Assembly: GCA_905479685.1 (NCBI GenBank)
Contig: CAJQNJ010000006.1
Span: 20,111-84,110 of the forward strand
Length of the DNA: 64,000 nt
Origin: an uncultured Acidimicrobiales bacterium
Lineage (GTDB): Bacteria > Actinomycetota > Acidimicrobiia > Acidimicrobiales > SHLQ01
Direction: 5' to 3'
Shown: positions 17,354 to 47,537 of the stretch, piece by piece
Layout: every line of letters begins with the position of its first letter
How positions within the stretch are numbered: position 1 is the stretch's first letter
Program-made: the position numbers and the translations under genes
Notes under the pieces: model-generated
Databases searched by the model: none
What the model was told of the DNA's origin: nothing
What the model saw: the letters and a program-made list of their open reading frames with translations, nothing else

Positions 17354-18537
17354 GGTTCACTCCTGTTCGTTGAGAGGGCAGCCGCCGCTCGGAGCAACAT
17401 CTCCTCTGAGTTAGGTGCCCCGATGAGGCCGAGCGGCACGTATTGGGAGTCATGTTGTGTGGGAATGACAACCTGCGGAAGTCCAGCAAGCGTGCTCGGC
17501 GCACCGAGCCGAAACGAGTCGACCCGAAACGAGAGAAGCTCGTCGTCAGTCCATGCACGGAGCGGTCCGACTCGAGGTCTGACCGGCACGACCGCGATTG
17601 CACCTGCCGGTATCAGAGAGAAGAGCTCGTTCTTGTAGTCGATGTGCTGCTGACGATCTCGCCCCTGCTCCTCGAGTGGGTCGTCGGCGAGGGTCTCGCA
17701 TCGCCGCAAACGTTGTTGCACGTCGTCCGCGAGCGCCCTGATGTTGTCGGTTACCCATCGGGAGTGTTCCGCCCATATCTCACGGCCCTGGAGCCTGGCA
17801 AGAAGATCCCCCGAAGACTCGTCCATGAACCGACTCATGTCCGCCTCGGCGACAGAAGCACCGAATGCACTGCCGATCTGCTCGGCAGCAGCCTGCATGG
17901 ATGAGCGGTTCTTCGTGTCCTGGGAAGCCCACACATCCATCGGGCACAGGACCGTTGATGCCGCTGCAGTTGCACCGGTTGCTGGAGCGACCACGTCGAT
18001 GGCCTGTTGTAGGAGCCCTGGTTCACGAGCGAAGAACCCGATCACATCGAAGGACGGTGCAAGCGGGACCACACCAGTGGTGTCCACCCGGCCGTGGGTG
18101 GGCCGGATGCTGAACAGTCCACACGCGGCTGCGGGGACTCGAATCGACCCGGCAGTGTCGGTCCCGACGCCAAGATCCGCAGCATCTCCCGCTACCGCTG
18201 AGGCCGACCCCGACGACGATCCCCCGCAGTACGAATCCTCGTCGAACGAGTTGATCGGCGGCGACCCCTCGCCCACGTTGCCGATCAGCGAGTAGGCGAG
18301 CTGGTCCATCTTCGTTGTGCCGACGACCGTGCCTCCAGCGGCCCGGAGCTGCGCGACGATCGGAGCATCAACCGCGGATGGTTCATGTGTGTCGCGCCAT
18401 CGAGCGTGTCCGAAAGAAGACTGGTGACCAGCGATGTCGATCAGGTCCTTGACTGCGATTCGAACACCGTCGAGCGATCCGTGCGCGGTCGGTGCCAACG
18501 TTACGGACGGTTCGGTGAAGCACTCGAGTTCGTTCAC
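17350..18537 (-). CDS. amidase-signature family amidase
   Basis: GGSSSGSASAVA amidase signature. GTGA overlap with the upstream gene and ATGA overlap with the downstream gene. Confidence 0.85.
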   Translation of the reverse strand: MNELECFTEPSVTLAPTAHGSLDGVRIAVKDLIDIAGHQSSFGHARWRDTHEPSAVDAPIVAQLRAAGGTVVGTTKMDQLAYSLIGNVGEGSPPINSFDEDSYCGGSSSGSASAVAGDAADLGVGTDTAGSIRVPAAACGLFSIRPTHGRVDTTGVVPLAPSFDVIGFFAREPGLLQQAIDVVAPATGATAAASTVLCPMDVWASQDTKNRSSMQAAAEQIGSAFGASVAEADMSRFMDESSGDLLARLQGREIWAEHSRWVTDNIRALADDVQQRLRRCETLADDPLEEQGRDRQQHIDYKNELFSLIPAGAIAVVPVRPRVGPLRAWTDDELLSFRVDSFRLGAPSTLAGLPQVVIPTQHDSQYVPLGLIGAPNSEEMLLRAAAALSTNRSEP

Positions 18538-30327: not shown

Positions 30328-32982
30328 TCAGGCCTCGTGTGCTGGCGCCTTCTTCTTGGCCGCAGCCTTCTTCTTGGCGGGAGCCTTCTTCTTCGCCTTC
30401 TTTTTGGCAGGCCCTGCCGCACGTCGGATCGCCAACAACTCGGCCGCACGCTCGTCAGTGAGCTCTTCGACCGTGTCACCCTTACGCAGCGACGCGTTGG
30501 TCTCGCCATCGGTGACGTACGGTCCGAACCGACCGTCCTTGACCACCATTGGTTTCTCGGTATCGGGATCGATTCCCATCTCCCGCAGCGGCGGTTTGAC
30601 CACCTGACCGCGGCGGGTCTTCGGCTGCGCAAGAATCGACAGGCATTCCTCGAGGGTGATGTCAAACAGCTGCTGCTCTGTCTCGAGGCTTCGACTGTCC
30701 TTCTCTTTCTTCAGATACGGGCCGTAGCGGCCGTTCTGTACGGTGATCTCGATGTTGTCCGCCGGGTCGACACCAACGAGACGAGGCAGTGACAACAAAC
30801 GCAGCGCATCGTCCAAGGACACCGTCTCGGGAGTCATTGCTGCAAACAGCGATGCACGTTTCGGTTTGTCCTCGCCGTCCAACATCTCACCGAGTTGGAC
30901 ATACGCGCCGAATCGTCCGTTGAGCACATAGACCGCCATGTTGGTCTCGGGGTCATCACCAAGCGACACCGGGCCCTTGGCCGCTTCCTCGATGTAGTTG
31001 ACCGCTTTGTCGACGGTGAGTTCGTCAGGCGGAATGTCGTCGGGAATCGAGGCTGTGTCGTCCTCACCGCGCTGCACGTACGGCCCGTACTTCCCCACAC
31101 GAGCGACGACCATTTCGCCATCGTCGGTGACACCGAGTGGGATCGAGTTGATCGCGCGGGCATCAATTTCACCGAGACGCTCGTCTACCTTCTTCTTCAA
31201 CCCCTCGGTCTGATCGGCACCGAAGTAGAACTTGTGCAACCACGGGATGGCCTCGGACGTACCACCAGCGATCGAGTCGAGCTCGTTCTCCATACGTTTG
31301 GTGTAGTCATAGTCGACGAGGTCCGGGAAGTGTTTCTCGAGAAGGCTCACCACCGAGAAGGCCGTCCAGGAAGGAATCAGGGCAGAACCCTTCTTCCACA
31401 CGTATTCACGATCTTGAATCGTGCCCATGATCGACGCGTAGGTCGACGGACGCCCGATCTCGAGATCGGCGAGCTTCTTGACGAGCGACGCCTCGGTATA
31501 CCGAGCGGGAGGTTGCGTCTCGTGGCCGTCGGCCGTGATGGCACCCGGCACCAACGTGTCTGACACCGCCAGGCTGGGTAGCTGACCACCTTCGGTTTCG
31601 TCACGCTCGTCGTCGGTGTCCTCGATGTATGCGCGGCGGAAGCCCTGATGAGTGATGATCGTTCCACTCGCCGAGAACACGGCGTCGCGGCCATCGCTGG
31701 CCGCAGCGCCGAGGCGCACTGACACGGTCTCTCCGACAGCATCGTTCATCTGGGAAGCGACCGTGCGCTTCCAGATCATCTCATAGACCCGAGCTTCGGA
31801 TTTTGCCACCTGCTTGGCGACCTCGGAAGGTGACTCGAACATTTCGCCGGCGGGACGAATTGCTTCGTGGGCTTCCTGGGCGTTCTTCGACTTGGTCGCA
31901 TACGTTCGCGGTTCGTCGGGAAGGAACTTCTCGCCGTACTCGGCAGTGATGAGGGCGCGCGCCGCGGCAATTGCGGTCTCGGACAACGTCGTCGAATCGG
32001 TACGCATGTAGGTGATGAGACCCTTTTCGTACAGGGACTGCGCAGAGCGCATCGCCATCGAAGAGCTCATGGCGAGTTTGCGCCCGGCCTCTTGCTGGAA
32101 TGTCGATGTCATGAATGGGGCCGACGGGCGTCGGCGATACGGCTTGGGCTCGACAGCGCGGACGGTGAAGTCAGCGCCCGACAACGCCTGGACCAGACCA
32201 TTTGCACCCACTTCATCGAGCACAACAGCGTCAGCCTTCGACAGCCTGCCCGTCTCGTCGAAGTCTTTTCCACTCGCTACTCGCCTGCCGTCGAGCTCGA
32301 GGAGTTTCGCACCGAAACTCGTTGGTTCGCCATCGGCGACCGCGCCGTTCTTGGCGAACTGTCCTTCGAGATCCCAATATGACGCCCGAACGAACGCCAT
32401 ACGTTCTCGCTCGCGTTCGACGACGATACGGGTCGCCACGCTCTGGACTCGCCCAGCCGACAGACGAGGCATGACCTTTTTCCACAACACTGGCGACACT
32501 TCGTACCCGTACAACCGGTCGAGCATCCGTCGAGCCTCTTGGGCGTCGACGAGGTGGCGGTCGAGTTCACGGGGATTCGCGAGGGCCTCGAGGATCGCTG
32601 TCTTGGTGATCTCGTGAAAGACCATACGTTTGACCGGGACCTGTGGATTGAGTACTTCGAGAAGGTGCCACGCAATGGCCTCACCCTCACGATCCTCATC
32701 CGTTGCGAGATAGAGCTCGTCGCTGTCCTTCAACAGCGACTTCAACTTCTTGATCTGATCCTTCTTGTCCGGAGAAATCACATAGAGCGGCTTGAAGTCA
32801 TTGTCGACATCGATGCCCATCCGGGACCAGCTCTCGCCCTTGTAGGCCGCCGGCACATCGGCAGCGTTTCTCGGCAGGTCACGAATGTGGCCGATCGAGG
32901 ACTCGACGAGAAAGTCGTCGCCGAGATACTCCGCGATTTTCTTTGCTTTCGCCGGGCTCTCCACGATCACGAGTGCGGTCAT
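30328..32982 (-). CDS. topA: DNA topoisomerase I
   Basis: TOPRIM N-terminus (LVIVESPAKAKKI), active-site region GLITYMRTDS, and a Lys/Ala-rich C-terminal tail. Confidence 0.95.
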   Translation of the reverse strand: MTALVIVESPAKAKKIAEYLGDDFLVESSIGHIRDLPRNAADVPAAYKGESWSRMGIDVDNDFKPLYVISPDKKDQIKKLKSLLKDSDELYLATDEDREGEAIAWHLLEVLNPQVPVKRMVFHEITKTAILEALANPRELDRHLVDAQEARRMLDRLYGYEVSPVLWKKVMPRLSAGRVQSVATRIVVERERERMAFVRASYWDLEGQFAKNGAVADGEPTSFGAKLLELDGRRVASGKDFDETGRLSKADAVVLDEVGANGLVQALSGADFTVRAVEPKPYRRRPSAPFMTSTFQQEAGRKLAMSSSMAMRSAQSLYEKGLITYMRTDSTTLSETAIAAARALITAEYGEKFLPDEPRTYATKSKNAQEAHEAIRPAGEMFESPSEVAKQVAKSEARVYEMIWKRTVASQMNDAVGETVSVRLGAAASDGRDAVFSASGTIITHQGFRRAYIEDTDDERDETEGGQLPSLAVSDTLVPGAITADGHETQPPARYTEASLVKKLADLEIGRPSTYASIMGTIQDREYVWKKGSALIPSWTAFSVVSLLEKHFPDLVDYDYTKRMENELDSIAGGTSEAIPWLHKFYFGADQTEGLKKKVDERLGEIDARAINSIPLGVTDDGEMVVARVGKYGPYVQRGEDDTASIPDDIPPDELTVDKAVNYIEEAAKGPVSLGDDPETNMAVYVLNGRFGAYVQLGEMLDGEDKPKRASLFAAMTPETVSLDDALRLLSLPRLVGVDPADNIEITVQNGRYGPYLKKEKDSRSLETEQQLFDITLEECLSILAQPKTRRGQVVKPPLREMGIDPDTEKPMVVKDGRFGPYVTDGETNASLRKGDTVEELTDERAAELLAIRRAAGPAKKKAKKKAPAKKKAAAKKKAPAHEA

Positions 32983-34495: not shown

Positions 34496-34936
34496 TCAAT
34501 CCGGTTTCAACGACGTGTCGATGATGAGCCGTACCAGGGTTCCCTTGTCGCCCGTTTCGATGTCCGTCTTGTCTACAAGACGGCGCATGAGCGGTATGCC
34601 CAAGCCATGTTCGAACAAGAGACGATCTGCAGACTCAGCATCGGGAACAACAGGAATGTCGTCGGGGTCGAACCCTGGTCCGCGGTCCCTGACCGTGACC
34701 TCGACTTGATTGCCCTGCGTGACACAACGGACCTCAACATGGCTGTCCGTTCCCGCAGCTTTGTGCGATTCGACGGCGTTGGTGACCGCCTCCGACACCG
34801 CTACACGAAGATCGTCGATCCGATCATCTCGTGAGTCGGGCTCGATCGCAGCGGCGGCCGCGAGAACAACACGAACCAACGCGATGTAGTCAGATTTCGC
34901 CGGAACACGAAGCACCACCTCGTCGCCGTCGGTCAC
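34496..34936 (-). CDS. anti-sigma factor / serine kinase (RsbW/SpoIIAB-like HATPase)
   Basis: Size of about 146 aa, with EAVTNAVEH and DRGPGFD blocks. ATGA-type overlap with the upstream STAS gene. Confidence 0.75.
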   Translation of the reverse strand: MTDGDEVVLRVPAKSDYIALVRVVLAAAAAIEPDSRDDRIDDLRVAVSEAVTNAVESHKAAGTDSHVEVRCVTQGNQVEVTVRDRGPGFDPDDIPVVPDAESADRLLFEHGLGIPLMRRLVDKTDIETGDKGTLVRLIIDTSLKPD

Positions 34937-35295
34937 GTTGCCCAGGGCCCCTGCGCGATCAACGACTTCGCATCGTCGACAGTCGATGAAACCACGAACA
35001 GTTGGTCGACCTCAGCAGATCGGAGGAGTTGTTCCACTTGGGTCGTCATTTCCGCTAACACACACTCTCCATCGGCCGCAATACACCGTCTGCGAAGCCC
35101 GATCAGCACCCCAATTCCAGCGGAGTCGATGAATTCGACAGCTCCGAGGTCGAGGACGACTCGATTCCAGCCATCTGCGGCGAGTTCGATCGATGCGCTG
35201 CGAAGCGCAGGTACACCCGACAGGTCGAGATCGCCGATCACACTGATGACCATCACATCATCACTCGAGGCCGACCTGCGCAACACCTGCATCAC
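34933..35295 (-). CDS. STAS-domain anti-sigma-factor antagonist
   Basis: 120 aa. VVLDLGAVEFIDSAGIGVLIG carries the conserved phosphorylatable Ser context (DSAG). Confidence 0.8.
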   Translation of the reverse strand: MMQVLRRSASSDDVMVISVIGDLDLSGVPALRSASIELAADGWNRVVLDLGAVEFIDSAGIGVLIGLRRRCIAADGECVLAEMTTQVEQLLRSAEVDQLFVVSSTVDDAKSLIAQGPWAT

Positions 35296-35474
35296 CGCCA
35301 GGGTAGTTGGGCGGACCCCTTCACAACCGAACTTTTCCTCGATCAGATCGGCTGGTCCACGGCACCACTGCCATGTCCGACGCCAAACGAGCTGGTGGGT
35401 ACGAGGAGAGGTTGTCGAGGGGGCCCAACCCTGGTCTGTCGCTGCTCTGTCACGTGTCGGTGCGATACTTGTAC

Positions 35475-37808
35475 ATGGCGATCGTCGAGGTGTCGGACCT
35501 GAGAGCGACCCCGGTCGATGATCTCAACCAATTCGACGACCTCATCGACATGCTGAGCGCTGACGGACGTCTCGCCCACGTCGAGCATCAACGCGCTCGA
35601 CCTGCTCGGTACGCCAATTCGATCGCACCCATGAGCCCCGGAGTCCTTCTAGCGCTCGGCAGCGAAAGGCTCTGGACGCACCAGGCCGAAGCAATCGATC
35701 TCGTGCACGCCGGTCATTCGGTTGTCGTCGCGACCGGCACGGCGTCTGGAAAGTCCCGCTGTTATCAGATACCGATCGCTGAGTCTGCCGCACGACTGGG
35801 CAACACCGGGACCGCATTGCTGATCTTTCCGACGAAGGCCCTGGCCCAAGATCAGCTTCGTTCGTTCCACTCCCACGGCTTCCCCGAGGTCGTGGCGGGC
35901 ACCTACGACGGAGATTCGACCCCTGAACAACGAAGCTGGGTTCGTTCGACCGCCAACGTGGTCCTCACGAATCCAGAGATGCTTCATGCTGGGATCCTCC
36001 CCGGCCACGCTCGATGGGCGACGTTTCTCAGCCGCCTCGATCATGTCGTGATCGACGAGCTCCACATTCTCCGTGGTGTCTTTGGCACGCATGTGTCGCA
36101 CGTCCTTCGTCGCCTCCGACGGCTCTGCCACCACTACGGGTCAGACCCCAAGTTCATCTTCACCTCCGCCACGATCGGCGAACCTGCAACTTTGGCGACC
36201 CAATTGTGCGGTGTGCCGGTCACCGAGGTGAACAACGACGGATCACCCCGAGGCGAACGCACTATCGTCATGCTCAACCCCCCGATCGTCGATGAGGCCC
36301 AGGGTCTGCGCACCTCCGCGAACGCCGAATCGTCGAGTGTCGGCGCGGAGCTGATCAAGCGCGGACACCGCACCATCGTGTTCTGCCGTAGTCGGCGCGG
36401 TACCGAGCTCGTCACTGGCGACATCGCTCGGAGGCTTCCCGCCGATGCATCCAACAGCGTTCGGGCCTATCGAGCCGGATATCTCGCAGCAGAGCGCCGC
36501 ACGATCGAGCACGAGTTGTTCGAAGGAAGCCTGCGTGGTGTCGTTGCCACGTCGGCGCTCGAACTCGGGATTGACGTCGGTGGACTCGACGCTTGTGTGC
36601 TCAACGGCTTCCCCGGCACGGTCGCATCGATGTGGCAACAGATCGGGCGAGCCGGGCGTGGTCAGCAACGCTCGGCGGCCTTCTTGGTCGCTGGCGATGA
36701 CCAACTCGATCAATGGATCATGTCGCACCCAACCGAATTGTTGAACCGACAACCCGAGCGCGCGGTCATCAACCCCACGAACCCGTTCATCCTCGGACCC
36801 CACCTCGCGTGCGCAGCGTTTGAGAAGCCCATATCTCACGATGACGATCAGTACTGGGGCGACGCGCTCGACGATGGCATCAGAGATCTCGTCCTCGACG
36901 ACCGCATCCTCCTCAAACCCTCCGGGGTGGGATCACCCCTCGCGGTCTATGCGGGTCAAGGACGTCCCACTCGAGCCATCGGCCTTCGCTCGGGCAGCGC
37001 TGACGAACTTCAAATCGTTCGAAAGGATGGCTCGATCGTCGGCACGGTCGACTCGTCACGTGCATGCGCAGTCGTACATCCGGGTGCCATCTATCTGCAC
37101 CAGGGCAAGCCGTATCAAGTCGCACGTCTCGATCTCGACGATCGAGTCGCCACGGTCGAGAACGCTGACGGCGAGCACTACACACAAGCCCGCACGAAGG
37201 TCGACATCTCCGTTGTACGCGCGGACGAACGCACCATGTGGGGCGGGGGTGCGTCCGGCGTCGAGGTATGTGTGGGCGAGGTCGAAGTCGTCAGCCAGGT
37301 CACCGGCTACCAGCGTCGCGAAGTTCGTAGCAGGCGTATTCTCGCAAACGAAGTACTCGACCTTCCACCGTCGACACTTCGAACGAGAGCGTTCTGGTAC
37401 GTGATTCCCGTCGACCAGATTGAGCGTGCAGGCCTCGATGCCAGCCAGGTACCTGGCGCCCTGCACGCCGCCGAACATGCCGGCATCGGCATGCTTCCCC
37501 TTTTCACCATCTGTGACCGCTGGGACGTGGGCGGTGTCTCGACACCGTGGCATGCAGGTGCCGGTGGTCCCACGATCTTCATCTATGACGCACACCCCGG
37601 CGGATCTGGGATCGCCGAACTCGGCTTCCAGGAACAAGACCGGCATTTGCGCGCGACTCGAGACGCAATGGCGACATGTGGGTGCAGCGACGGTTGTCCC
37701 TCCTGCGTGCAATCACCCAAGTGCGGCAACGGTAATGAGCCGCTCGACAAACACGGGGCTGTTGCTCTGCTCGATCAGATCCTCGGCGTGTCAGACGTAG
37801 ACGTCTGA
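35475..37808 (+). CDS. DEAD/DEAH-box helicase with a C-terminal DUF1998 zinc-ribbon domain (MrfA/YprA-like)
   Basis: TGTASGKS (motif I), VIDELH (motif II), and the C-terminal CGCSDGCPSCVQSPKCGNGNEPLDK. I chose the ATG at 35475; the longest ORF starts at 35307. Confidence 0.9.
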   Translation: MAIVEVSDLRATPVDDLNQFDDLIDMLSADGRLAHVEHQRARPARYANSIAPMSPGVLLALGSERLWTHQAEAIDLVHAGHSVVVATGTASGKSRCYQIPIAESAARLGNTGTALLIFPTKALAQDQLRSFHSHGFPEVVAGTYDGDSTPEQRSWVRSTANVVLTNPEMLHAGILPGHARWATFLSRLDHVVIDELHILRGVFGTHVSHVLRRLRRLCHHYGSDPKFIFTSATIGEPATLATQLCGVPVTEVNNDGSPRGERTIVMLNPPIVDEAQGLRTSANAESSSVGAELIKRGHRTIVFCRSRRGTELVTGDIARRLPADASNSVRAYRAGYLAAERRTIEHELFEGSLRGVVATSALELGIDVGGLDACVLNGFPGTVASMWQQIGRAGRGQQRSAAFLVAGDDQLDQWIMSHPTELLNRQPERAVINPTNPFILGPHLACAAFEKPISHDDDQYWGDALDDGIRDLVLDDRILLKPSGVGSPLAVYAGQGRPTRAIGLRSGSADELQIVRKDGSIVGTVDSSRACAVVHPGAIYLHQGKPYQVARLDLDDRVATVENADGEHYTQARTKVDISVVRADERTMWGGGASGVEVCVGEVEVVSQVTGYQRREVRSRRILANEVLDLPPSTLRTRAFWYVIPVDQIERAGLDASQVPGALHAAEHAGIGMLPLFTICDRWDVGGVSTPWHAGAGGPTIFIYDAHPGGSGIAELGFQEQDRHLRATRDAMATCGCSDGCPSCVQSPKCGNGNEPLDKHGAVALLDQILGVSDVDV

Positions 37809-37891: not shown

Positions 37892-39538
37892 CTAGTTCGG
37901 AACGGTGACCGTGACCGTGGCCCGCTCACAGCGGCCATTCGTGTCACAGATCTGGTAGACGATGATGTCGACGACGTCTTGCACATCCCGCCTGTATTGG
38001 ATGTGGTTGGAGCGCACGGCGTAATCGGTGGCATAGCGCGGCGCAACGATGATCTCGAGCGTGGCTTCGTCGATTGGATGCTCGCCTGGAGCATCGTTAT
38101 CGAGGACGTCTATCTGGTTGACTCCGGCGTTTGTGATCGTGATCGCGTCATCGTTTGCGTCGGGACCACCCCGCGGCGGTGCACTGGTTGTGGTCGTCGG
38201 TGACGGCCCTGCCGTGGTCGCTGCCGTCGTCGTTGATGACGGCCCTGATGTTGTGACCGCGCTTGACGCTGCCGTCGTCGTCGGAACCGGCCCAGCAGCA
38301 GTCGTCGTCGGTGACGGATCCGTGTTGGGAACGGCCGCCGCAGGCTGCGGCACAACGGGCGCCAGGCCCGTCTCCTCAACGACAACCTCTTCGGCCGCAG
38401 GACCTGAGTCGTCGAACGCAAGAGCCTGAGGAGCCTCGACACTGCCGGCGGCGGCAAGCGACGCAGCAGATACCGACACAGCCATCGCCACCGTGGCCAT
38501 TGCGGAGCCGACCGTCGGGCTCGCTGTGGCTACCGAACTCGTCACGCGCATCAGCGTGGGAAGTTCGAGCAACCAACCGAGGAATCCCGCGGAACGACCA
38601 TCCTCGAGTCCAATTCGGAGGAAGGCCTTGACCACAGCGGGATCGAACTGTGTTCCGGCGCAGCGATAGAGCTCCTCTCGCGCGGCACTCGGTGACATCG
38701 GCTCCTTGTAGCTTCGCTTGGACGTGATGACGTCGTAGGTGTCCGCGACCGCCGCGATTCGGCCACCAAGGCTGATCTCAGTTGCCTCGAGTTGAGCGGG
38801 GTATCCACCGCCGTCCCAGCGTTCGTGATGGTGCAGTGCGACAAAACCCCACTCGCCAAGCCAACCATGAAGGGGCTCGAGGATCTTCTGCCCCTCGACT
38901 GGATGCTGTTTGAGAATACGCCACTGCTCTTCTGTAGGCGCTTCCTTACTGTTGAGAATGTGGGCCGGAACTGTCAGCTTGCCAACGTCATGGAGCAACA
39001 TTCCCCAGCGAAGTCGATTCAGCTCATCGTCGGTCAGGCCCATTTCCTGACCGATGAGCTCGGCGTATGTTCGGACTCGTTCTGTGTGTCCACGAGTCCG
39101 GGGCTCATGTGCTCCGAGGGCTGCGACCAACGCCATTGCTTGCTCGGCTGCCTCTTGGGTGTCGTTACTCAATGTCAATTGCTCGGGCGTCAACTTCTTG
39201 ATGTTTCCGGCTCGCAACGTGACACCAAATCGAGACGGGGCATGGTCGGGGAACACCATCGTCATGTTGAGAAGCGCCGACATGGGAGCGAGTCTGTTGG
39301 CGACGGTCTTGGTGCTGTGCGCGGCGACCGACGCAACAACGATCGCTTGCACGATCCAGAACCCAGTACCGATCCACCCCTCGGGTCGATAGAAGATCGG
39401 GGCGATAATACGAACCGCCAACCAGCCAATGATGATCGGCGAAACAAACAAGAGCAGGCGTACCAGCTTGGCGAGCACGGGACGTGAGGCCCATGCCGAC
39501 AAGCTCTCGCTTGCGCCAGTAGTAGGTCCCGTAATCAC
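37892..39538 (-). CDS. membrane HD-GYP domain protein with a Pro/Thr-rich linker and a C-terminal cadherin-like (VCBS/Ig-like) domain
   Basis: Two N-terminal TM helices. HDVGK ... HHERWDGGGYP (HD-GYP). A third Ala/Val-rich hydrophobic segment, then a P/T linker. The C-terminus ANDDAITITNAGVNQIDVLDNDAPG ... ATVTVTVPN looks cadherin-like. Confidence 0.85.
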   Translation of the reverse strand: MITGPTTGASESLSAWASRPVLAKLVRLLLFVSPIIIGWLAVRIIAPIFYRPEGWIGTGFWIVQAIVVASVAAHSTKTVANRLAPMSALLNMTMVFPDHAPSRFGVTLRAGNIKKLTPEQLTLSNDTQEAAEQAMALVAALGAHEPRTRGHTERVRTYAELIGQEMGLTDDELNRLRWGMLLHDVGKLTVPAHILNSKEAPTEEQWRILKQHPVEGQKILEPLHGWLGEWGFVALHHHERWDGGGYPAQLEATEISLGGRIAAVADTYDVITSKRSYKEPMSPSAAREELYRCAGTQFDPAVVKAFLRIGLEDGRSAGFLGWLLELPTLMRVTSSVATASPTVGSAMATVAMAVSVSAASLAAAGSVEAPQALAFDDSGPAAEEVVVEETGLAPVVPQPAAAVPNTDPSPTTTAAGPVPTTTAASSAVTTSGPSSTTTAATTAGPSPTTTTSAPPRGGPDANDDAITITNAGVNQIDVLDNDAPGEHPIDEATLEIIVAPRYATDYAVRSNHIQYRRDVQDVVDIIVYQICDTNGRCERATVTVTVPN

Positions 39539-39590
39539 TACTTCTTATATCGACTGTCGAAATTGAGCAGTTGCTGGGCCGAATGGACCG

Positions 39591-39959
39591 TCAAGAACGT
39601 TCGATGATGTCTTCCCTTCGCATGTGAGCCTCCGCTGATAGCACCCGTTCGCCCACTCCGATCCACGGCACGCCATCGACGGTTCGAGTGACTCTCACCA
39701 CGACGAATTCTGGATCGAGTTCTGTTGAGACATCCAACTCGCCTGCCACTCTCGACACTGCCGTCGATGCCACTGCCATGGCGTTCTCGGGCTCGACAGC
39801 GGCTGCACGTACACCTTCTCGCGCGGCATGTTCGAGTTGAAGTTGCAGGGCGATCACCTGCCCCACCCACACGATCCCGGCAATACAGATGACGAGCAGC
39901 GGGAGGATCAGCGCGAACTCGACCGTGGCTTGCCCTCGATCCTCCCGACCGCCGCACAT
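39591..39959 (-). CDS. tadE: TadE-like pilus assembly (pseudopilin) protein
   Basis: GQATVEFALILPLLVICIAGIV is a TadE N-terminal motif. Its start overlaps the flp stop (TGATG). Confidence 0.75.
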   Translation of the reverse strand: MCGGREDRGQATVEFALILPLLVICIAGIVWVGQVIALQLQLEHAAREGVRAAAVEPENAMAVASTAVSRVAGELDVSTELDPEFVVVRVTRTVDGVPWIGVGERVLSAEAHMRREDIIERS

Positions 39960-40195
39960 CAGACCTTGCCGATGATCGAGTCGACAACTGCGTCGAACAA
40001 TTCGCCGATCTTTCCAGTACCGGAAGCCCAGGACACGACGATCAATGCGATTGTCGCTGCCCCCAGAAGGAGCAGTGCGTACTCAGCCGTGGATTGCCCA
40101 CGCTCGTCTCTCCGGTTCGTGAACACGATTGCCGTTCCGAGGAGCTCGTCGAGCCGATGAATGCACTTCAGGATGGATCTGGTTGCCATGTACAT
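39959..40195 (-). CDS. flp: Flp-type pilin (actinobacterial DUF4244-like)
   Basis: GQSTAEYALLLLGAATIALIVV matches the Flp G/xxxxEY motif plus a hydrophobic helix. AAGGAA lies upstream of the ATG. Confidence 0.65.
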   Translation of the reverse strand: MYMATRSILKCIHRLDELLGTAIVFTNRRDERGQSTAEYALLLLGAATIALIVVSWASGTGKIGELFDAVVDSIIGKV

Positions 40196-40259
40196 GACAT
40201 GTTCCTTTCAAGTTGTTGAGGGCGAGAGCTCGCCGATAAGAACTGTTGGCGTTGTTGAT

Positions 40260-40769
40260 TCAGCCCGGGAGTGAACTGAGCGCTCCCAGGAGGAGGGGGA
40301 CCACGGCGAGCAGAATGAAGGCTGGCAAGATGCACAACACCAGCGGAAAGAGGAGCGACACAGTGAGCCGCTGTGCTGCTGCATCGAGAGACACTGCACG
40401 TTCGCGTCGCAGGTCCCGGACGAGAAGCTCGAGATGTAGAGCGAGCTCGACACCATCGAGTTCCGCCCGACGAAGCACATCGAGCACCCGGACGAATCCT
40501 GTCGATGAATTTTCGGGCTCGAGGCGGATGATCGCCGACGACAGGTCGGCCCCCAGTCCGAGTCTCCCTCCGATGGCTGCGAAGTCATCGGACGCAGTGC
40601 CGAGCGCTCCCCGATCGATCGGGAGACCACCGACAACTTCAATCGCTCGCCGTGGACCGAGCCCTGCGGCGGTCGCAATCTGCAGCAGCAATACAGCGCT
40701 CGGAAGCCCACGAACACGGCGCTCGAGGCGGCGACGGTCGTTCCGACGACGGGACAAGGTCCCGATCAT
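40260..40769 (-). CDS. tadC: type II secretion system F-family membrane protein (TadC)
   Basis: T2SSF-like helices. The ATG at 40769 gives an ATGA overlap with the tadB stop; the longest ORF extends to 40799. Confidence 0.75.
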   Translation of the reverse strand: MIGTLSRRRNDRRRLERRVRGLPSAVLLLQIATAAGLGPRRAIEVVGGLPIDRGALGTASDDFAAIGGRLGLGADLSSAIIRLEPENSSTGFVRVLDVLRRAELDGVELALHLELLVRDLRRERAVSLDAAAQRLTVSLLFPLVLCILPAFILLAVVPLLLGALSSLPG

Positions 40770-41587
40770 CGGAGCCGCCGCATTGCTGCCCGCATCCACA
40801 GCAGGCCGGCTGCGTCGAGGGTGAGACCACCAGCGAGAAGAACAAGGCCGAGCGGGCCCTCGTAGATGACTTCGCCGCGCACCAATGATGCCGCTGCCGA
40901 GAAGCCAACGGGTAACGACACAAGTACGAGCGCGGACATGGTCGTCTGCATGAGCAGCACTCGACGGCGCTCCGCGAGCTCCAGATCATCTCGTATTCCT
41001 TCCCCAACCATGTCCAGGGTGCGAGCAAGGTCACCTCCGTGTTCCACTCCGATCACGAGGGCTGCGACCAGAAGCAGTTCGGCACTCGAAGATGCTGTAT
41101 GCCCCCAGCCGTCGAGCGCATCGGATATTGGTCTCCCACGCTCGACCTGATTCACCATCACGACGAACCCTTCGGGGAGTGGAGTCATCTCCGATGCCAC
41201 GGTTCGGATTGCCCGGTCGATCGGCTGCCCCGAGCGGACATCCCTCGACAGACGGAGCGTCAGTTCGGGAAGCGCGGCCTGCGACCGCTCACGTGTCCTC
41301 GTGCGAGCGACGCGGTCGCCGATCGACAGTGAGATGGCGAGACTGGCGATCGCCATGGCAACACCGATGATCCCACCGAGATGTGCGCCGAGGGACACCA
41401 CCGACCCGGCCACCCCCAGGAAGAGCGCCGAAGGCGACCATTCGAGATCGACACCAGCTTCCTGCATTCGGGTTCGCACGTAGTCGTCGACGCGGTGTCG
41501 TTTGGCGATGTCGTTGGGGTCGCTGCGGTTGCGCGCGATGTGTTGCGCAGTCGACTTCTGATCCGCCGCGATTCTCGAGGGAATCAT
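40766..41587 (-). CDS. tadB: type II secretion system F-family membrane protein (TadB)
   Basis: T2SSF-like. The ATG at 41587 gives an ATGA overlap with the tadA stop; the longest ORF extends to 41629. Confidence 0.75.
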   Translation of the reverse strand: MIPSRIAADQKSTAQHIARNRSDPNDIAKRHRVDDYVRTRMQEAGVDLEWSPSALFLGVAGSVVSLGAHLGGIIGVAMAIASLAISLSIGDRVARTRTRERSQAALPELTLRLSRDVRSGQPIDRAIRTVASEMTPLPEGFVVMVNQVERGRPISDALDGWGHTASSSAELLLVAALVIGVEHGGDLARTLDMVGEGIRDDLELAERRRVLLMQTTMSALVLVSLPVGFSAAASLVRGEVIYEGPLGLVLLAGGLTLDAAGLLWMRAAMRRLR

Positions 41588-42708
41588 GATCGGGAAACCT
41601 CGGCGCCGAATACCGTGTCGAGGCTCCATCCACTGGTGGGCCGATCCGGGACGTTGGCGATCTCGACGACCTGACGGCTGCCCTCGCTTGCTCTGCCCAT
41701 CATCACAACCATGTCGATGCAGGACGCCAGCTGCTCCCGAATTGCTGCGAGCGGCAGATCTGCATCGCCGAGCAACATCAACGTCTCGATCCTGCGCATG
41801 GCGTCCGAAGGGCTGTTGGCATGGATCGTTGACAGCGATCCCCGATGGCCGGTGTTCATCGCCTGAACCAGATCGAGAGCTTCGGCGCCCCGCATCTCGC
41901 CACAGATGATCCGATCTGGACGCATCCGAAGCGCGTGGCGAGCAAGTTCACGAAGACCCACAGCTGCAGTCCCCTCTGTTGCGTTTCTGGTCTCTAGTCG
42001 CACGACATGGCGACCTGGGAGCCGGAGCTCCGCGGCATCCTCGATCGTCACGATTCGGGTGTCGGGTTCGATCTCTGCGCCGAGAGCGTTCAGCATCGTC
42101 GTCTTGCCCGACGATGTCGCACCGGCGATGATGATCGTCTTGCCATCTCTGATCGCCGCACGGAGATGGCTACACATCTCCGGTGGCGCCATCTCGTTGA
42201 TCGCAATCACCTGCGCCGCAAATCGCCTGATCGTGATGCACGGACCGTCAACGGCCAACGGTGGGATGATGGCATGAAGCCTGGAACCATCGGCAAGCCT
42301 GACATCCACACTCGGATGCGTGAGATCCACGCGTCTTCCAACGCTGGCTGCCAGACGTCGCACCAGGTGTTCCACTTCACCGGCTTCGAGATGTTGATCG
42401 GTCCGTTCGAGCGCACCTCGGCGTTCGACCCAAACCGTGCCGTCACCATTCACCATGATCTCGGTGACAGTCGAATCGAAGGTATGTCGTTGTAGAGCAC
42501 CGAGGCCATCGATGCGGGCGCGGACCTCGACGCTGAGCTCCTCGATGCGCACATCGGACGCCAGCGGCTCGGATGCGGCGATCAGCTCACGAATCCTCCG
42601 ATCGATGCGTTCGTCGCCAGCGGTCGGAACCGACGCATCAGATTCATCCCACAGCGATTGGTGAACGAGATCGATCGTGCCCTGATCGTCCGATGTCGGC
42701 ATCATCAT
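41584..42708 (-). CDS. tadA: Tad pilus secretion ATPase (CpaF/TadA, VirB11-like)
   Basis: IIAGATSSGKTTMLNAL Walker A, VTIEDAAEL, and the GHRGSLSTIHANS His box. Confidence 0.9.
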   Translation of the reverse strand: MMMPTSDDQGTIDLVHQSLWDESDASVPTAGDERIDRRIRELIAASEPLASDVRIEELSVEVRARIDGLGALQRHTFDSTVTEIMVNGDGTVWVERRGALERTDQHLEAGEVEHLVRRLAASVGRRVDLTHPSVDVRLADGSRLHAIIPPLAVDGPCITIRRFAAQVIAINEMAPPEMCSHLRAAIRDGKTIIIAGATSSGKTTMLNALGAEIEPDTRIVTIEDAAELRLPGRHVVRLETRNATEGTAAVGLRELARHALRMRPDRIICGEMRGAEALDLVQAMNTGHRGSLSTIHANSPSDAMRRIETLMLLGDADLPLAAIREQLASCIDMVVMMGRASEGSRQVVEIANVPDRPTSGWSLDTVFGAEVSRS

Positions 42709-43427
42709 CGCCCTCCGAGAAGGTTCCCGATGGACCTGGCTTCGTGCCTGTCCAATGGCAGACCGATCTCGAGGTCTGTGACGAGACGCCGCAGCGATCG
42801 AGGAAGTCGGCGGCGCATCAAGCCGGCATCGACAGCACGGGCGATCTGGGGATCGAACGGCAGCCGAGCCGTCACCGGCTGACCGAGGACAGCCTCGATG
42901 TCAACGGTCGTCAACGCTCGTCCCCCTTCGACGATCTCGACGACATCGTCGACGACCATGGGTATCGACCGAGCGCGCCTCAGGGCCAGGTAGCAGGCGC
43001 GTACGACCAGCGTGGTTCGGTCTCCCGCAGCGGCGATCAAGGACGTGGAGGCCAGCGGGTCGGGATTGACGACGCCGAGATCAGCAATGACCGTTCCTCC
43101 GGCACTCAGAGATCGCACCAACTCGGTACAGCGCTGCGGATCCGCTCCACCGACGAATGAGGTGGTGCCGGTTGAAATGATTCGAAGGGTTCGCCCTACA
43201 TCAACCGCAAGATGGCCGAGCGCGCTCACTGCGACGCTCTCGTCGGCAAGCAGCCAATCCACGACACCAGGCGTCGCCGGCTCCGCACCGAGACCAAAGA
43301 TGTCCATCTGATCTCCGGCAAAGTCGACGATGGTCACCGGCTGCTCGATCGAGAGCTGACACGCCACAGCTGCAACGACGACAGAAAGCCCAACGCCGCC
43401 CTTGGGCGCAACAAAAGTCCAGAACAT
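42705..43427 (-). CDS. CpaE/TadZ-like ParA/MinD-fold protein (Ssd-like)
   Basis: Degenerate deviant Walker A (APKGGVGLSV). Positioned immediately upstream of and overlapping tadA, as in actinobacterial tad loci. Confidence 0.7.
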   Translation of the reverse strand: MFWTFVAPKGGVGLSVVVAAVACQLSIEQPVTIVDFAGDQMDIFGLGAEPATPGVVDWLLADESVAVSALGHLAVDVGRTLRIISTGTTSFVGGADPQRCTELVRSLSAGGTVIADLGVVNPDPLASTSLIAAAGDRTTLVVRACYLALRRARSIPMVVDDVVEIVEGGRALTTVDIEAVLGQPVTARLPFDPQIARAVDAGLMRRRLPRSLRRLVTDLEIGLPLDRHEARSIGNLLGGR

Positions 43428-43572
43428 GATGCTCCGTGCGCATCAGCGCACCACAAGACAACTGGGGAAGTGTCGGGGTCGCCATGGCGACGAGAGGGTC
43501 ATCGGAGGACCAAGGTCTACTTTGGCACGCGGCGAGCCCTCGGCGCAACGCCGCCGCTCTAGGCTTGCCCGT

Positions 43573-44382
43573 ATGGGCGATCAAACGGTAGTCCCTGCGC
43601 GTAACGCGGCGGCCTTTTTCGATCTCGACAAGACCACGATTGCGACCGCGTCCATGTTTGCGTTCGGCTCCACGCTCCGCAACGCCGGCTTCATCAACTC
43701 GCGTCTGATCATGCGCGCGGTGTGGGGACGCCTCGTATTCAAATACCTCGGCGCCGATCACGAACGTATGGAGGACATGCGCAACAGTGCGCTTCGCCTC
43801 TGCAAAGGCTGGGATCAAAAGGAGGTCTCCGCGCTGGTGACCGACGCGTTGGAAGAGGTGATCGAACCGATCGTCTATCGCGAGGCGATGGAGGAGATGG
43901 CAGCACACCGCGCCGCCGGCCACAAAATCTTCGTTGTCTCGGCTTCTCCCGAGGAGATCGTGGTTCCGCTCTCCAAGTATCTGGGCGCGGATGGCGCCGT
44001 TGCGACCATCGCCGAGACGAACCGAGAGGGCAAGTACACCGGAGAGGTCGAATTCTACTCCTATGGTCCCTTCAAGGTCGATGGGATCGAGGCGTTGGCT
44101 CTCGAGCACGATCTAGACCTCGACCACTCGTATGCATACACCGACTCGATCACCGACCTCCCGATGCTCGAAGCGGTTGGGCACCCAATCGTCGTGAACC
44201 CCGACAAGGCCCTGGCCCAGATCGCCGCCGACCGCGGTTGGGAGATCCGGTGGTTCTCGAACACGGTTCCACTTCGCCAACGCGTCGGCGAACATGCCAT
44301 GACCGGCGCTCTGGTCGCTGGGGTCGGGGCGGTCGCTGGGGGAGCAAGTTGGTACGTGCGTTCGCGTCGCCGAACCGCCTGA
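43573..44382 (+). CDS. HAD-IB family hydrolase (SerB-like) with a C-terminal membrane segment
   Basis: FFDLDKTTI (DxDxT) and YTDSITDLPML. I chose the ATG at 43573; the longest ORF starts at 43402. Confidence 0.8.
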   Translation: MGDQTVVPARNAAAFFDLDKTTIATASMFAFGSTLRNAGFINSRLIMRAVWGRLVFKYLGADHERMEDMRNSALRLCKGWDQKEVSALVTDALEEVIEPIVYREAMEEMAAHRAAGHKIFVVSASPEEIVVPLSKYLGADGAVATIAETNREGKYTGEVEFYSYGPFKVDGIEALALEHDLDLDHSYAYTDSITDLPMLEAVGHPIVVNPDKALAQIAADRGWEIRWFSNTVPLRQRVGEHAMTGALVAGVGAVAGGASWYVRSRRRTA

Positions 44383-45769: not shown

Positions 45770-46657
45770 TCAGACCGTTCGCCACGGCCGTGCTGTCGCC
45801 ACCGCCATTGCACGGAGCTCTGCGAATCGCTCGCTGACCTCACCGTGAATCACGTCATGGCGCAGCGTCGGGCTCGCGTCCGAAGCTGGACGCCAAATTG
45901 CTCGCCCTCCAGTGAATCCGGAGCACCCATGTTCGAAGGCGACCTGCAGCTGGGCCCGATACTGCTCGAAGGTGACGCCGGACGACAGCAACACCCATGG
46001 CTGTCGACAAGCTGCATCAACAGCGGCGCATGCATCGGCCCATCCTTCGGGATGGGATGGATCTCCGGGAAACTCGAGCTTCAAGACGTCGATGGGAAGG
46101 TCGGTCAACTGGCGAACCGTGTCGAGCACAACCGCTGGACGGTCGGCATCGTTCATCCCGAACGCGACGGGTTCCACCAAGAACGCCAGATCGAGGTCCG
46201 CGCAGATACCTGCGGTATCGGCGACGACCTTGCGCTGCTGCGCGGCGTGGTCGAGCCGCTCCGGTGCGTACGGCAACAGCAGCTTGGCTGCGCTCGCTCC
46301 GAACCTCTTTGCGTCGAGCGCCGTCCATCCTTCGAGCATTGTCGTCGGTCCAGCCCATGGGTCCTGCATGTACCCCTGCGCCTCGAGCGCGGCCATGAAC
46401 CCGCTGGTCCCCGAGAGAGCACCTGACTCGATCGCGTGAGGAAGGCTGAACTCGGGTTCGAGCATCACTCCGCTGGCCTGTGCACCAACGCCCCTGATCA
46501 GCTGCATCTTGAAATTCGTGATGTCCTGTGCGGATGCCTCGCCCGGTAGGACGGCCTTGAGCGAATCGCGATGGTCGATCGCGAGTACGGCGAACACGCC
46601 TTCGTTCGTCGCAAGCGTGTCGATGCCACGCATCTTTCCTGGGGTCAGTACATTCAT
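45770..46657 (-). CDS. class I aldolase of the LacD (tagatose-1,6-bisphosphate aldolase) family
   Basis: VFAVLAIDHRDSLK, DVLKLEFP, and PWVLLSSGVTFEQY ... GCSGFTGGRAIW, as in LacD/YihT-type aldolases. Confidence 0.7.
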   Translation of the reverse strand: MNVLTPGKMRGIDTLATNEGVFAVLAIDHRDSLKAVLPGEASAQDITNFKMQLIRGVGAQASGVMLEPEFSLPHAIESGALSGTSGFMAALEAQGYMQDPWAGPTTMLEGWTALDAKRFGASAAKLLLPYAPERLDHAAQQRKVVADTAGICADLDLAFLVEPVAFGMNDADRPAVVLDTVRQLTDLPIDVLKLEFPGDPSHPEGWADACAAVDAACRQPWVLLSSGVTFEQYRAQLQVAFEHGCSGFTGGRAIWRPASDASPTLRHDVIHGEVSERFAELRAMAVATARPWRTV

Positions 46658-46751
46658 GTCAGGCTCCCGTCTGCGGCGGGAGACCGCCAGGATTCTGGAG
46701 ATTCGGAGCGTCGATCACCGGCTGCGTCCAAGCCCCGACATCACCCTGTTC

Positions 46752-47537
46752 TCAGTCGTCGTGGATCCAAGTGAAGTCTGCATGGAAACAGGGCGGTGTG
46801 ATCCGCTCCTTGTCGACCAGCTCTCCGGCCAAGTAGTTCAGGAAGAACATGTTCGACCCAGGGCACGCGACGCTCGAGTGGTACCCCTTCGGCACGAGGG
46901 CGACATCACCGTCGTGTAGAACCACGGTCTCGTCGAAGCCATCCTCGGGAGCCCAGTTGCGATGAATTGCGAAGCCGTTCCCAGGGTCGAGGCGGAAGAG
47001 GTAGGTCTCCTCGAGGTACGGCGATCCTTCCACACCGTCGTGTCGATGTGGGGCCCAACCCGACCAGCTCCCTCGAGGCACGTACACCTCGTACAGGATC
47101 AGTCGTTCGGCATCGACCGGCGGGGCGAGGACGTGGTTGACCTGGCGGTGCGACGCACCGCCGCCACGGACTTCGCTCTTCATCTGGTCGGGAGTGATCA
47201 ACCGGGTCGGATACATGCCCTCGGCCGGCGCGGACCCAATCGCAAATTCGAACCGGTCGCCGATTGCCGTGATCGACATGGAATCGCCAGGTGTCGCGTA
47301 CACGATCTCGGGCATCTCGGTGAAGACGCTTGTGCGCCCGATCTCATAACTCTCGACACCGGCTCGCACGGCGCCGCGTCCAGAGAGCGGAACGATGGCG
47401 GTTTCTTGACCGGGGCGGGTGTCTTGATGCACCTCACCTTCGGCAAGGCTCACGACCGAGAAGCTGAGGAACCGCCACCGTGCCGATTCTGGCGTAACAG
47501 CCAGTCCTCCATCGTTTCGAATCAAGCTGTTGCTCAT
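46752..47537 (-). CDS. iolB: 5-deoxy-glucuronate isomerase family protein (IolB paralog, short form)
   Basis: WSGWAPHRHD, and PKGYHSSVACPGSNMFFLNYLAG (cupin, KduI/IolB family). Confidence 0.75.
   Translation of the reverse strand: MSNSLIRNDGGLAVTPESARWRFLSFSVVSLAEGEVHQDTRPGQETAIVPLSGRGAVRAGVESYEIGRTSVFTEMPEIVYATPGDSMSITAIGDRFEFAIGSAPAEGMYPTRLITPDQMKSEVRGGGASHRQVNHVLAPPVDAERLILYEVYVPRGSWSGWAPHRHDGVEGSPYLEETYLFRLDPGNGFAIHRNWAPEDGFDETVVLHDGDVALVPKGYHSSVACPGSNMFFLNYLAGELVDKERITPPCFHADFTWIHDD

Follow-up and report, generated by a model that had tools for sequence, protein, structure and literature searches.

The window analysed here, a stretch of 64,000 nucleotides (nt) on contig CAJQNJ010000006.1 of an uncultured Acidimicrobiales bacterium, carries on its minus strand a run of tad pilus genes followed by a gene for an HD-GYP protein of 548 amino acids (aa). 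The open reading frame (ORF) of this gene, as seen from its translation, starts with GTG. We found that homologues of the protein begin with M-x-x-GPTxGAxE at the same position, which supports this start, and AAGAAG stands 3 nt ahead of the GTG. Homologues conserve the protein at its N-terminal as well as at its C-terminal end. A preliminary description, made from the DNA sequence alone, had divided the protein into two N-terminal transmembrane (TM) helices, a complete HD-GYP domain, a third hydrophobic segment, a linker and a C-terminal domain, and Pfam profiles and hydrophobicity agreed with this division (Table 1).

Hydrophobic windows of 19 residues marked each of the three segments, with mean Kyte-Doolittle (KD) values of 2.33 for aa 28-46, 1.72 for aa 55-73 and 1.75 for aa 346-364. 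The loop connecting TM1 and TM2 is only about six residues long, and so no sensor domain lies between them. After TM2 comes a juxtamembrane motif, in which P85, F96, P97, D98, P101 and S102 were invariant among 59 sequences. We considered the ORF as an artefactual fusion of a gene for a cytoplasmic HD-GYP protein and a downstream gene for a secreted protein (with a signal-peptide-like 'MRVTSS...'), and rejected this, because the same continuous architecture is kept in hundreds of diverged relatives.

The HD-GYP domain scored far above the Pfam cut-offs, with 116.3 bits for HD_5 (PF13487; cut-off 27.2) and 60.1 bits for HD (PF01966; cut-off 22). Its metal-binding set is complete (H151, H183-D184, H212, H237-H238-E239 and D266, plus G245-Y246-P247) and aligns with that of the solved HD-GYP proteins PmGH and V-cGAP3. 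Aligned with the same two proteins, K187 (the Lys of HDxGK) and R275-S-Y-K278 (RxxK) are also present, the residues whose role in contacting cyclic di-GMP (c-di-GMP) is described by Galperin & Chou (10.1101/2021.11.05.467447). All catalytic and contact residues were invariant in alignments with 20 and with 59 relatives, and the equivalent motif residues were invariant or nearly so in separate alignments of 67 and 28 family members. The domain had been called complete in the preliminary description, and indeed every key residue is in place. This invariance favours an active enzyme over a degenerate receptor, and we hold with high confidence that the cytoplasmic domain is a catalytically intact phosphodiesterase, predicted to be active.

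In the AlphaFold2 model the predicted local distance difference test score (pLDDT) was above 90 throughout the catalytic domain. A Foldseek search gave the best superposition with the bimetallic enzyme PA4781 (TM-score 0.74), followed by PmGH and by DvhD with bound c-di-GMP (9rbz). PmGH carries E185 as the ligand of a third metal, at the fourth position ahead of the first metal-binding His. E185 aligns with R147 of the window protein, and L, R, K, M or G occupies the position elsewhere in the family (20-sequence alignment). A conserved acidic residue, E/D145, is found two residues upstream of R147; it aligns, however, with PmGH D183 and not with E185, and the alignment revealed no acidic residue in the query equivalent to the E185 of the trinuclear subfamily, whose members hydrolyse c-di-GMP to GMP. 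With R147 in place of E185, the domain is predicted to be of the binuclear subtype, a class that tends to stop at pGpG (Galperin & Chou, 10.1101/2021.11.05.467447), and would most likely open c-di-GMP to pGpG.

The third hydrophobic segment bears on whether the remainder of the protein leaves the cell. In 118 close homologues, the best 19-residue window after the HD-GYP domain reached a mean KD value of 1.6 or more in 85% of the sequences and of 1.4 or more in 96%, and its position was constant, 95-100 aa after GYP, although its sequence was not conserved. An equivalent segment was seen in nearly all of 132 further diverse representatives, so that its position is kept in about 240 relatives. 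Lys and Arg together made up 1.5% of the 60 aa past the segment versus 12% of the cytoplasmic part, a depletion of about eightfold across the family, and Asp and Glu were maintained at about 13.5% in the same 60 aa. Such a drop of Lys and Arg agrees with the positive-inside rule and supports a tail that is outside. Among tails of at least 120 aa, 204 contained an even number of cysteines, 8 an odd number and 25 none, as compared with odd numbers in 51% of the cytoplasmic portions; the paired tail cysteines indicate disulfides and hence export. Both kinds of count were drawn from related sequences and are thus not independent. The domains found in the tails, moreover, are of types known from secreted and surface proteins, which also supports an external location, as does the likeness of the modelled C-terminal domain of the window protein to adhesin domains. 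From these indirect signatures we infer that the third segment is inserted in the membrane as TM3, running from inside to outside. A protein with its N-terminus inside, three TM helices and its C-terminus outside is, thus, the topology that we favour with high confidence, in line with the preliminary description, which had placed catalysis inside and the adhesin-like domain outside.

Beyond the third segment the chain continues as a linker and then as the C-terminal domain; there is not a single Lys or Arg between R331 and R456. Across the family the linker consists of 20% Thr, 15% Ala and 15% Pro. The preliminary description had rightly called it Pro/Thr-rich; its length, given there as about 60 aa, is closer to 90 aa (365-455), and its first part is acidic. 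As an extended stalk, some 90 residues would have the length needed to span the wall of a monoderm cell. A metagenomic protein in ENA (P0001) is 100% identical to the window protein apart from 45 extra aa, which duplicate linker units (PTTTAAGPV, SSAVTTSGPSSTTTAA and TTAGPSPTTTT). The extra residues reflect either strain-level polymorphism of the stalk length or the collapse of repeats in one of the assemblies.

In a scan of the full-length protein, the C-terminal domain matched Big_9 (PF17963; aa 459-545) with 20.9 bits, below the cut-off of 23.6; scanned alone, the C-terminal 97 aa (452-548) scored 27.2 bits (E 7e-6), above it. The homologous C-terminal domains of relatives matched Big_9 in 35 of 35 cases (best E 2e-16), Cadherin_5 in 18 and Cadherin_4 in 7, the profiles PF17892 and PF17803 being related cadherin-like ones. 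The earlier label 'cadherin-like' is thus fair, and 'VCBS' is imprecise. AlphaFold2 folded the domain as a seven-stranded immunoglobulin (Ig) β-sandwich with a pLDDT of 94.2. Its nearest folds in Foldseek were split domains of RTX adhesins (FrhA, MpIBP), PKD, Rib and cadherin EC (desmocollin) domains, with query-normalised TM-scores of 0.55-0.67, yet with every E-value above 0.001. D464, N481 and D482 (the VLxND motif), which might serve calcium binding or adhesion, were invariant in alignments, as were C531 and C537 in homologues; this Cys pair would, as predicted from the sequence, stabilize the single Big_9 ectodomain by a disulfide.

To place the protein among its relatives we used a word-indexed search with the full-length sequence and an exhaustive HMMER search with aa 1-345 against representatives of clusters at 50% identity. 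The former returned 2,759 proteins, of which the best 120 all had E below 1e-107; the matches that carried an organism name came from Acidimicrobiales, from Ilumatobacter or other Ilumatobacteraceae, or from unclassified Actinomycetota. The latter found 7,746 cluster representatives with E ≤1e-30, of which the top 150 all fell below 2e-82. These ranged in length from 312 to 2,237 aa, and nearly all spanned the N-terminal membrane module and the HD-GYP domain. A scan of GTDB representatives added members from Thermoleophilia, Gaiellaceae, Acidothermaceae and Frankiales. The order of elements is conserved: the GPTxGAxE...W..RP peptide, TM1, the loop of about six residues, TM2, LLNMTLVFPDxAPSRFG, the HD-GYP domain, LxWLxELP and the hydrophobic segment. 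Beyond that segment everything varies, a Pro/Thr-rich linker being followed by an exchangeable tail.

The tails of the 120 closest matches consist of one Big_9 domain, as in the window protein, of pentapeptide repeats or of CBM2. Among 67 mid-size representatives that have no Big_9-like domain, 14 have pentapeptide repeats, and LTD, DUF11, C-type lectin or PKD domains occur in a few; in most, the tail had no Pfam match. The 28 proteins of at least 900 aa are built from adhesin-type modules: Big_9 was found in all 28, Cadherin_4 in 27, Cadherin_5 in 26, CshA_repeat in 12, Cadherin in 10, LTD in 9 and FG-GAP in 5, and He_PIG, PKD, NHL and PepSY are present as well. A locally built profile detected up to 13 copies of the window-type domain in a single protein, and at the extremes a tail is a lone Big_9 domain or exceeds 1,800 aa of adhesin-type repeats. 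The window protein is thus the minimal form of a large uncharacterised family of Actinomycetota, mostly Acidimicrobiia, in which a chassis of two TM helices, HD-GYP domain and TM3 (the N-terminal ~340 aa) is conserved and the ectodomain is swapped among adhesin-type modules. The architecture is not rare. Public annotations call the members 'HD domain-containing phosphohydrolase' or 'HD-GYP domain-containing protein', and NCBIfam has no dedicated model for the protein, a partial match to the NosR family lying far below cut-off. Two genomes carry family members as tandem pairs, at 7471-12445 of L003 (Acidimicrobiia chromosome OZ244213) and at 7664-11929 of L005 (a metagenome-assembled genome of Acidimicrobiales), suggesting local duplication and expansion of paralogues.

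Table 1. Features of the HD-GYP gene, its protein and the adjoining tad cluster (window coordinates).
Feature	Position	Strand	Remarks
HD-GYP gene, whole	37892..39538	minus	548-aa protein, predicted three-pass with C-terminal ectodomain; stop codon 37892-37894
N-terminal peptide, aa 1-19, predicted cytoplasmic	39482..39538	minus	family motif GPTxGAxE...W..RP conserved in alignments (20 + 59 sequences)
TM helix 1, aa 20-48	39395..39481	minus	KD 2.33; AlphaFold2 helix 20-48, pLDDT >90
TM helix 2, aa 55-77	39308..39376	minus	KD 1.72; AlphaFold2 helix 55-91, continuing to aa 91
Juxtamembrane motif P-x3-LLNMTxVFPDxAPSRFG, aa 85-105	39224..39286	minus	low pLDDT in AlphaFold2 model
HD-GYP catalytic domain, aa 140-302 (Pfam span)	38633..39121	minus	HD_5, E 1.6e-33
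Third hydrophobic segment AMATVAMAVSVSAASLAAA, aa 346-364	38447..38503	minus	putative TM helix 3, inside to outside
Linker, aa 365-455	38174..38446	minus	acidic, then Pro/Thr/Ser/Ala repeats; putative wall-spanning stalk
Big_9/cadherin-like Ig domain, aa 456-548	37895..38173	minus	Pfam, AlphaFold2; invariant Cys pair C531, C537
Spacer between tadE and HD-GYP gene, 52 nt	39539..39590	minus	G+C content 0.48 versus ~0.61 for the window
tadE-like pseudopilin (122 aa)	39591..39959	minus	Pfam TadE, 56.1 bits
flp, Flp-type pilin (78 aa)	39959..40195	minus	G/QSTAEY processing motif; DUF4244 29.2 bits; Flp_Fap weak
tadC (169 aa)	40260..40769	minus	T2SSF 32.3 bits; same length as L081 orthologue; 4-nt overlap with tadB stop
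tadB, start uncertain (orthologue 273 aa)	40766..41629	minus	Pfam T2SSF, E 4e-12
tadA, secretion ATPase (374 aa)	41584..42708	minus	Pfam T2SSE, E 2.5e-44
tadZ-like, ParA/MinD-type (240 aa)	42705..43427	minus	heads the minus-strand run; weak CbiA match; orthologues in same position

The gene stands, as the preliminary description had it, behind tadE on the same strand after an AT-rich spacer of exactly 52 nt. A consensus scan of this gap found no terminator- or promoter-like site, which is weak evidence, given that only the sigma-70 consensus was used. Co-transcription with the tad operon is plausible from this arrangement and is predicted here. The HD-GYP protein shows no homology to a known Tad component, Pfam and NCBIfam giving only HD/HD_5 and Big_9, and no c-di-GMP riboswitch or other Rfam family reached the gathering score anywhere in the 64-kb window. 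In delimiting the cluster we discarded a mechanically listed ORF at 40208-40717 (169 aa) as tadC, since it is in the wrong frame, and a 302-aa ORF at 43201-44109 (minus), which looks spurious, the orthologous loci having a divergent HAD-family gene there.

On its other side, the HD-GYP gene ends 83 nt from the stop of a convergent gene for an MrfA-type DEAD-box helicase (35307-37808). The helicase gene is adjoined by a pair encoding a STAS anti-sigma antagonist and a HATPase_c_2 anti-sigma kinase (34496-35295, minus). An 884-aa ORF at 30328-32982 (minus) encodes DNA topoisomerase I (TIGR01051, 788 bits); in related loci this ORF carried no Pfam annotation computed beforehand. A family member from Thermoleophilia (L007, 13393-16986) likewise lies 1.3 kb from topA, with neither tad genes nor the helicase nearby. 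A topA-helicase-tad neighbourhood occurs in mycobacteria too, and so the block may be ancient.

Four related loci share this context, with HD-GYP proteins 55-89% identical to that of the window, and three of them keep the adjacency to tad. The closest (L081, 89% identity) has the same order, tadZ-A-B-C-flp-tadE-HD-GYP, with a 52-nt gap after tadE; the arrangement is also kept at L082/83 (69%) with a gap of 248 nt and at L086 (57%) with a gap of 65 nt. At the fourth, L085 (55%), insertion sequence (IS) fragments lie upstream in place of tad, and the contig ends 3.3 kb away. These fragments (1432-3002) derive from ISL3- and rve-type transposase genes, and IS activity may have displaced the tad cluster there. 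The helicase gene is conserved at all four loci (the L086 contig ends just after it), the STAS/anti-sigma kinase pair and topA at L081, L082/83 and L085, and a Na+/H+ antiporter gene at L081 and L082/83.

Genes immediately downstream of the HD-GYP gene have been gained or lost while the junction with tadE persisted, and this persistence amid turnover favours a linkage. The genes concerned are a lipoprotein-like gene with fn3 domains (L082, L085 and L086) and, at L082, genes for a LysR-type protein and a PAS-GGDEF diguanylate cyclase. The latter (17019-18356, with the orthologous HD-GYP gene about 5 kb upstream) indicates that the lineage can make c-di-GMP. The fn3 gene encodes about 440 aa and directly follows the HD-GYP gene (L082, 11926-13251; L085, 5145-6491; L086, 11625-12938), with two fn3-matched stretches in L086 and one in L082. 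The L086 protein, the only one translated, begins with a lipoprotein-like signal, MIGRRVACIASVSLALLASAC. In the window and in L081 this gene is absent, and about 90 nt separate the HD-GYP and helicase genes. As a separate observation, a pentapeptide paralogue of 813 aa (P0059; L089, 8001-12194) is convergent to DeoC/KduI(IolB)/GFO inositol-catabolism genes, homologues of which lie upstream of the window tad cluster (45770-47537); this may be a coincidence or the trace of a rearrangement.

The above results suggest a membrane-bound HD-GYP phosphodiesterase with a surface ectodomain, modulated by contact and linked to tad, an overall explanation that we favour with moderate confidence. The Lys/Arg-free stalk would reach across the cell wall and present the Big_9 domain at the surface, where the domain could bind a surface, a polymer or a neighbouring cell. 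Binding may then alter local hydrolysis of c-di-GMP, either by clustering of the protein or by tension on TM3, placed immediately after the last helix of the HD-GYP domain. In the lineage of the window, the HD-GYP gene is probably the last of a tadZ-A-B-C-flp-tadE operon; this would couple the making of pili with the turnover of c-di-GMP. Since the loop between TM1 and TM2 is too short for a sensor, no part but the ectodomain could take up an external input. The substrate, the coupling of ectodomain to enzyme and the link to the pilus are the elements that we infer; contact-dependent coupling is tentative, and a functional link to tad is a good possibility that falls somewhat short of likely. 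The sensor idea had already been put forward in the preliminary description, and its architecture and topology hold, whereas linkage to tad does not extend past one lineage.

Several observations weigh against this explanation, and some of them lend themselves to other readings of the protein. At the level of the enzyme, the closest solved relative in sequence is the cGAMP-specific V-cGAP3 of V. cholerae (5z7c, E 6e-29), so that sequence cannot decide between c-di-GMP and cyclic GMP-AMP (cGAMP) as the substrate. The domain might, for example, act on 3'3'-cGAMP, or might be mainly a nucleotide-binding receptor instead of an enzyme. Enzymes for c-di-GMP, however, score equivalently (PmGH, 4mcw, E 1.4e-28; PA4781, 4r8z, followed with 2.3e-22), the best fold matches, PA4781 and DvhD, are c-di-GMP enzymes, and the invariant catalytic residues speak against a degenerate receptor; we regard both variants as improbable. 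Nor is there, in the 64-kb window, an ORF with a GGDEF motif or a second HD-GYP paralogue similar to this protein, which might have hinted at how c-di-GMP acts on the pilus (PilZ-type receptors were not searched for). As to topology, AlphaFold2 modelled aa 314-454, the proposed TM3 included, as coil with a pLDDT below 50, and aa 346-364, with many Ala, Ser and Thr residues, are of marginal hydrophobicity, with a crude Hessa sum of +2.35, which is nevertheless better than the +2.88 of TM2, a confident AlphaFold2 helix. Pentapeptide repeats, the tail type of the 14 mid-size relatives mentioned above, are not diagnostic of an extracellular location. Were the third segment not membrane-spanning, as the preliminary description had allowed, the linker and the Big_9 domain would be cytoplasmic, and the protein would be an HD-GYP enzyme with two TM helices and an intracellular Ig-like interaction domain. 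A coil of such low confidence, however, is neutral, neither supporting nor excluding a membrane span, and the family signatures favour the span: even cysteine numbers in the tails, the eightfold depletion of Lys and Arg, a hydrophobic segment kept in position and not in sequence, and tails composed of CBM2, lectin, cadherin, FG-GAP, PKD and PepSY domains. We consider a cytoplasmic tail very improbable.

The step from ectodomain to enzyme meets a further objection, in that such a long, low-complexity stalk of variable length makes a rigid conformational relay, or coupling of the receptor type, unlikely. The options that remain are clustering induced by a ligand or a surface, tension on TM3, or no coupling at all. 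In the last case the protein would be an anchored adhesin or localisation device and no sensor; the ectodomain would only tether it to wall polymers, matrix or cells, nothing would cross TM3, and the HD-GYP domain would be constitutive or regulated via the TM1-TM2 hairpin and the N-terminal and juxtamembrane motifs. This accords with the flexible Pro/Thr linker of about 90 aa that differs in length between otherwise identical proteins, with the interchangeable adhesin-type ectodomains of up to 13 Big_9-like repeats, and with the fact that the best-conserved non-catalytic elements (GPTxGAxE and FPDxAPSRFG) are cytoplasmic or membrane-embedded. The obligatory fusion of an intact enzyme and an ectodomain over hundreds of clusters, however, suggests joint action, and TM3 follows the last HD-GYP helix without a gap, leaving a mere anchor an unlikely, if serious, competitor. 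The link to tad faces a stronger challenge. No tad gene or TadA-like ATPase was found within 8-10 kb of any of 18 non-syntenic family members (L001-L011, L084 and L087-L092), which are isolated genes amid unrelated metabolic genes, apart from the tandem pairs described above. The tad adjacency noted in the preliminary description is thus kept at three of the four loci of the orthologous lineage and in none of the other 18 members, and the link is specific to that one lineage. Even there adjacency is weak evidence of function, because the whole region is collinear wherever tad is kept. The gene may have been inserted by accident at the 3' end of an old block of actinobacterial genes kept in strongly collinear order, comprising tad, the MrfA-type helicase, STAS/anti-sigma kinase and topA, and serve general c-di-GMP pools unrelated to pili; the conservation of every neighbour and not of tad alone, the 248-nt gap at L082 and the IS fragments in place of tad at L085 fit with this. 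Against an accident stand the tadE/HD-GYP junction, which outlasted gain and loss of the fn3 lipoprotein, LysR and GGDEF genes directly downstream (L082, L085 and L086), and the gap of 52-65 nt, free of terminator-like sites in three lineages. On balance, an accidental position falls only a little short of an even chance.

How, then, does the protein, as a proposed membrane-bound phosphodiesterase with a surface ectodomain, compare with known systems? With PA4781, PmGH and DvhD it has in common the HD-GYP fold and every catalytic and c-di-GMP-contacting residue; PA4781, like the window protein, is without the third-metal Glu that PmGH has. These three, however, are soluble proteins with N-terminal REC, PAS or other domains, whereas in the window protein the HD-GYP domain sits between membrane helices with the ectodomain after it. 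HD-GYP domains are typically found at C-termini, behind N-terminal sensors, and the extracytoplasmic types dCache-, PBPb- and CHASE2-HD-GYP have not been characterised experimentally (Galperin & Chou, 10.1101/2021.11.05.467447). As in the window protein, these types combine an outside domain and a cytoplasmic HD-GYP domain in one polypeptide; their ligand-binding sensor, however, is upstream, between two TM helices, and not a C-terminal adhesin-type domain on a long flexible stalk. Neither Actinobacteria nor cadherin appears in the text of that paper. Among membrane HD-GYP proteins of actinobacteria, the one that has been studied is Streptomyces HdgA, whose N-terminal polytopic MASE9 domain has 6 TM helices according to PMC6205966 and 8 as predicted by Galperin & Chou (10.1101/2021.11.05.467447). 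HdgA has no C-terminal ectodomain, in contrast to the window family with its 2-TM hairpin, TM3 and ectodomain.

Elements of the arrangement are also found in systems of other kinds. In the LapD-LapG-LapA system, c-di-GMP signalling controls the display of a giant surface adhesin with cadherin/Ig repeats. There, however, separate proteins (a degenerate GGDEF-EAL receptor, a periplasmic protease and an adhesin secreted by a type I system) act from the inside out in a diderm, whereas the window family joins a predicted active phosphodiesterase and adhesin-like repeats in one polypeptide of a monoderm. In Caulobacter, obstruction of the Tad pilus on surface contact stimulates diguanylate cyclases encoded elsewhere; Tad pili and c-di-GMP are common to both cases, and the window has a phosphodiesterase gene at the end of the tad operon. 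Eukaryotic receptor-type enzymes such as receptor tyrosine phosphatases, with an Ig, fn3 or cadherin ectodomain, a single membrane span and a cytoplasmic hydrolase, are often regulated by clustering and not by a conformational relay. Their catalytic domain is unrelated and their order is reversed, the enzyme being N-terminal in the window family and kept inside by two extra N-terminal TM helices. In the literature on HD-GYP proteins with respect to Tad pili, to cadherin- or Ig-like ectodomains and to Acidimicrobiia, we found no description of this combination. The preliminary description had taken the combination as not known to be characterised and had allowed that it might be both common and already characterised; it proved to be common, and we found no paper that describes it.

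The known routes by which bacteria turn surface contact into a change of c-di-GMP are indirect, via flagella, pili or envelope stress, and to our knowledge almost nothing is known of surface sensing through c-di-GMP in monoderm Actinomycetota outside Streptomyces. If the explanation favoured here is true, an enzyme fused across the membrane to exchangeable ectodomains would be a candidate for a direct transducer of contact into a second messenger. The gene of the window offers a convenient entry point for biochemical work and topology mapping: its product, which has one Big_9 domain, is the smallest of the family, and the gene stands behind a Tad operon. Of greater value, however, is the family taken together, whose members join an HD-GYP enzyme across the membrane to adhesin-type ectodomains that are exchangeable and at times giant; it turns round the usual order, in which the sensor is N-terminal and the HD-GYP domain C-terminal, and it is abundant in environmental Acidimicrobiia. 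Should the sensor idea fail, the family would still represent a new mode of anchoring surface adhesins in monoderms. More speculatively, it may be an unrecognised class of 'adhesion-receptor phosphodiesterases', which would turn contact, via clustering or tension on TM3, into hydrolysis of c-di-GMP and, in the lineage of the window, would set the behaviour of the Tad pilus.

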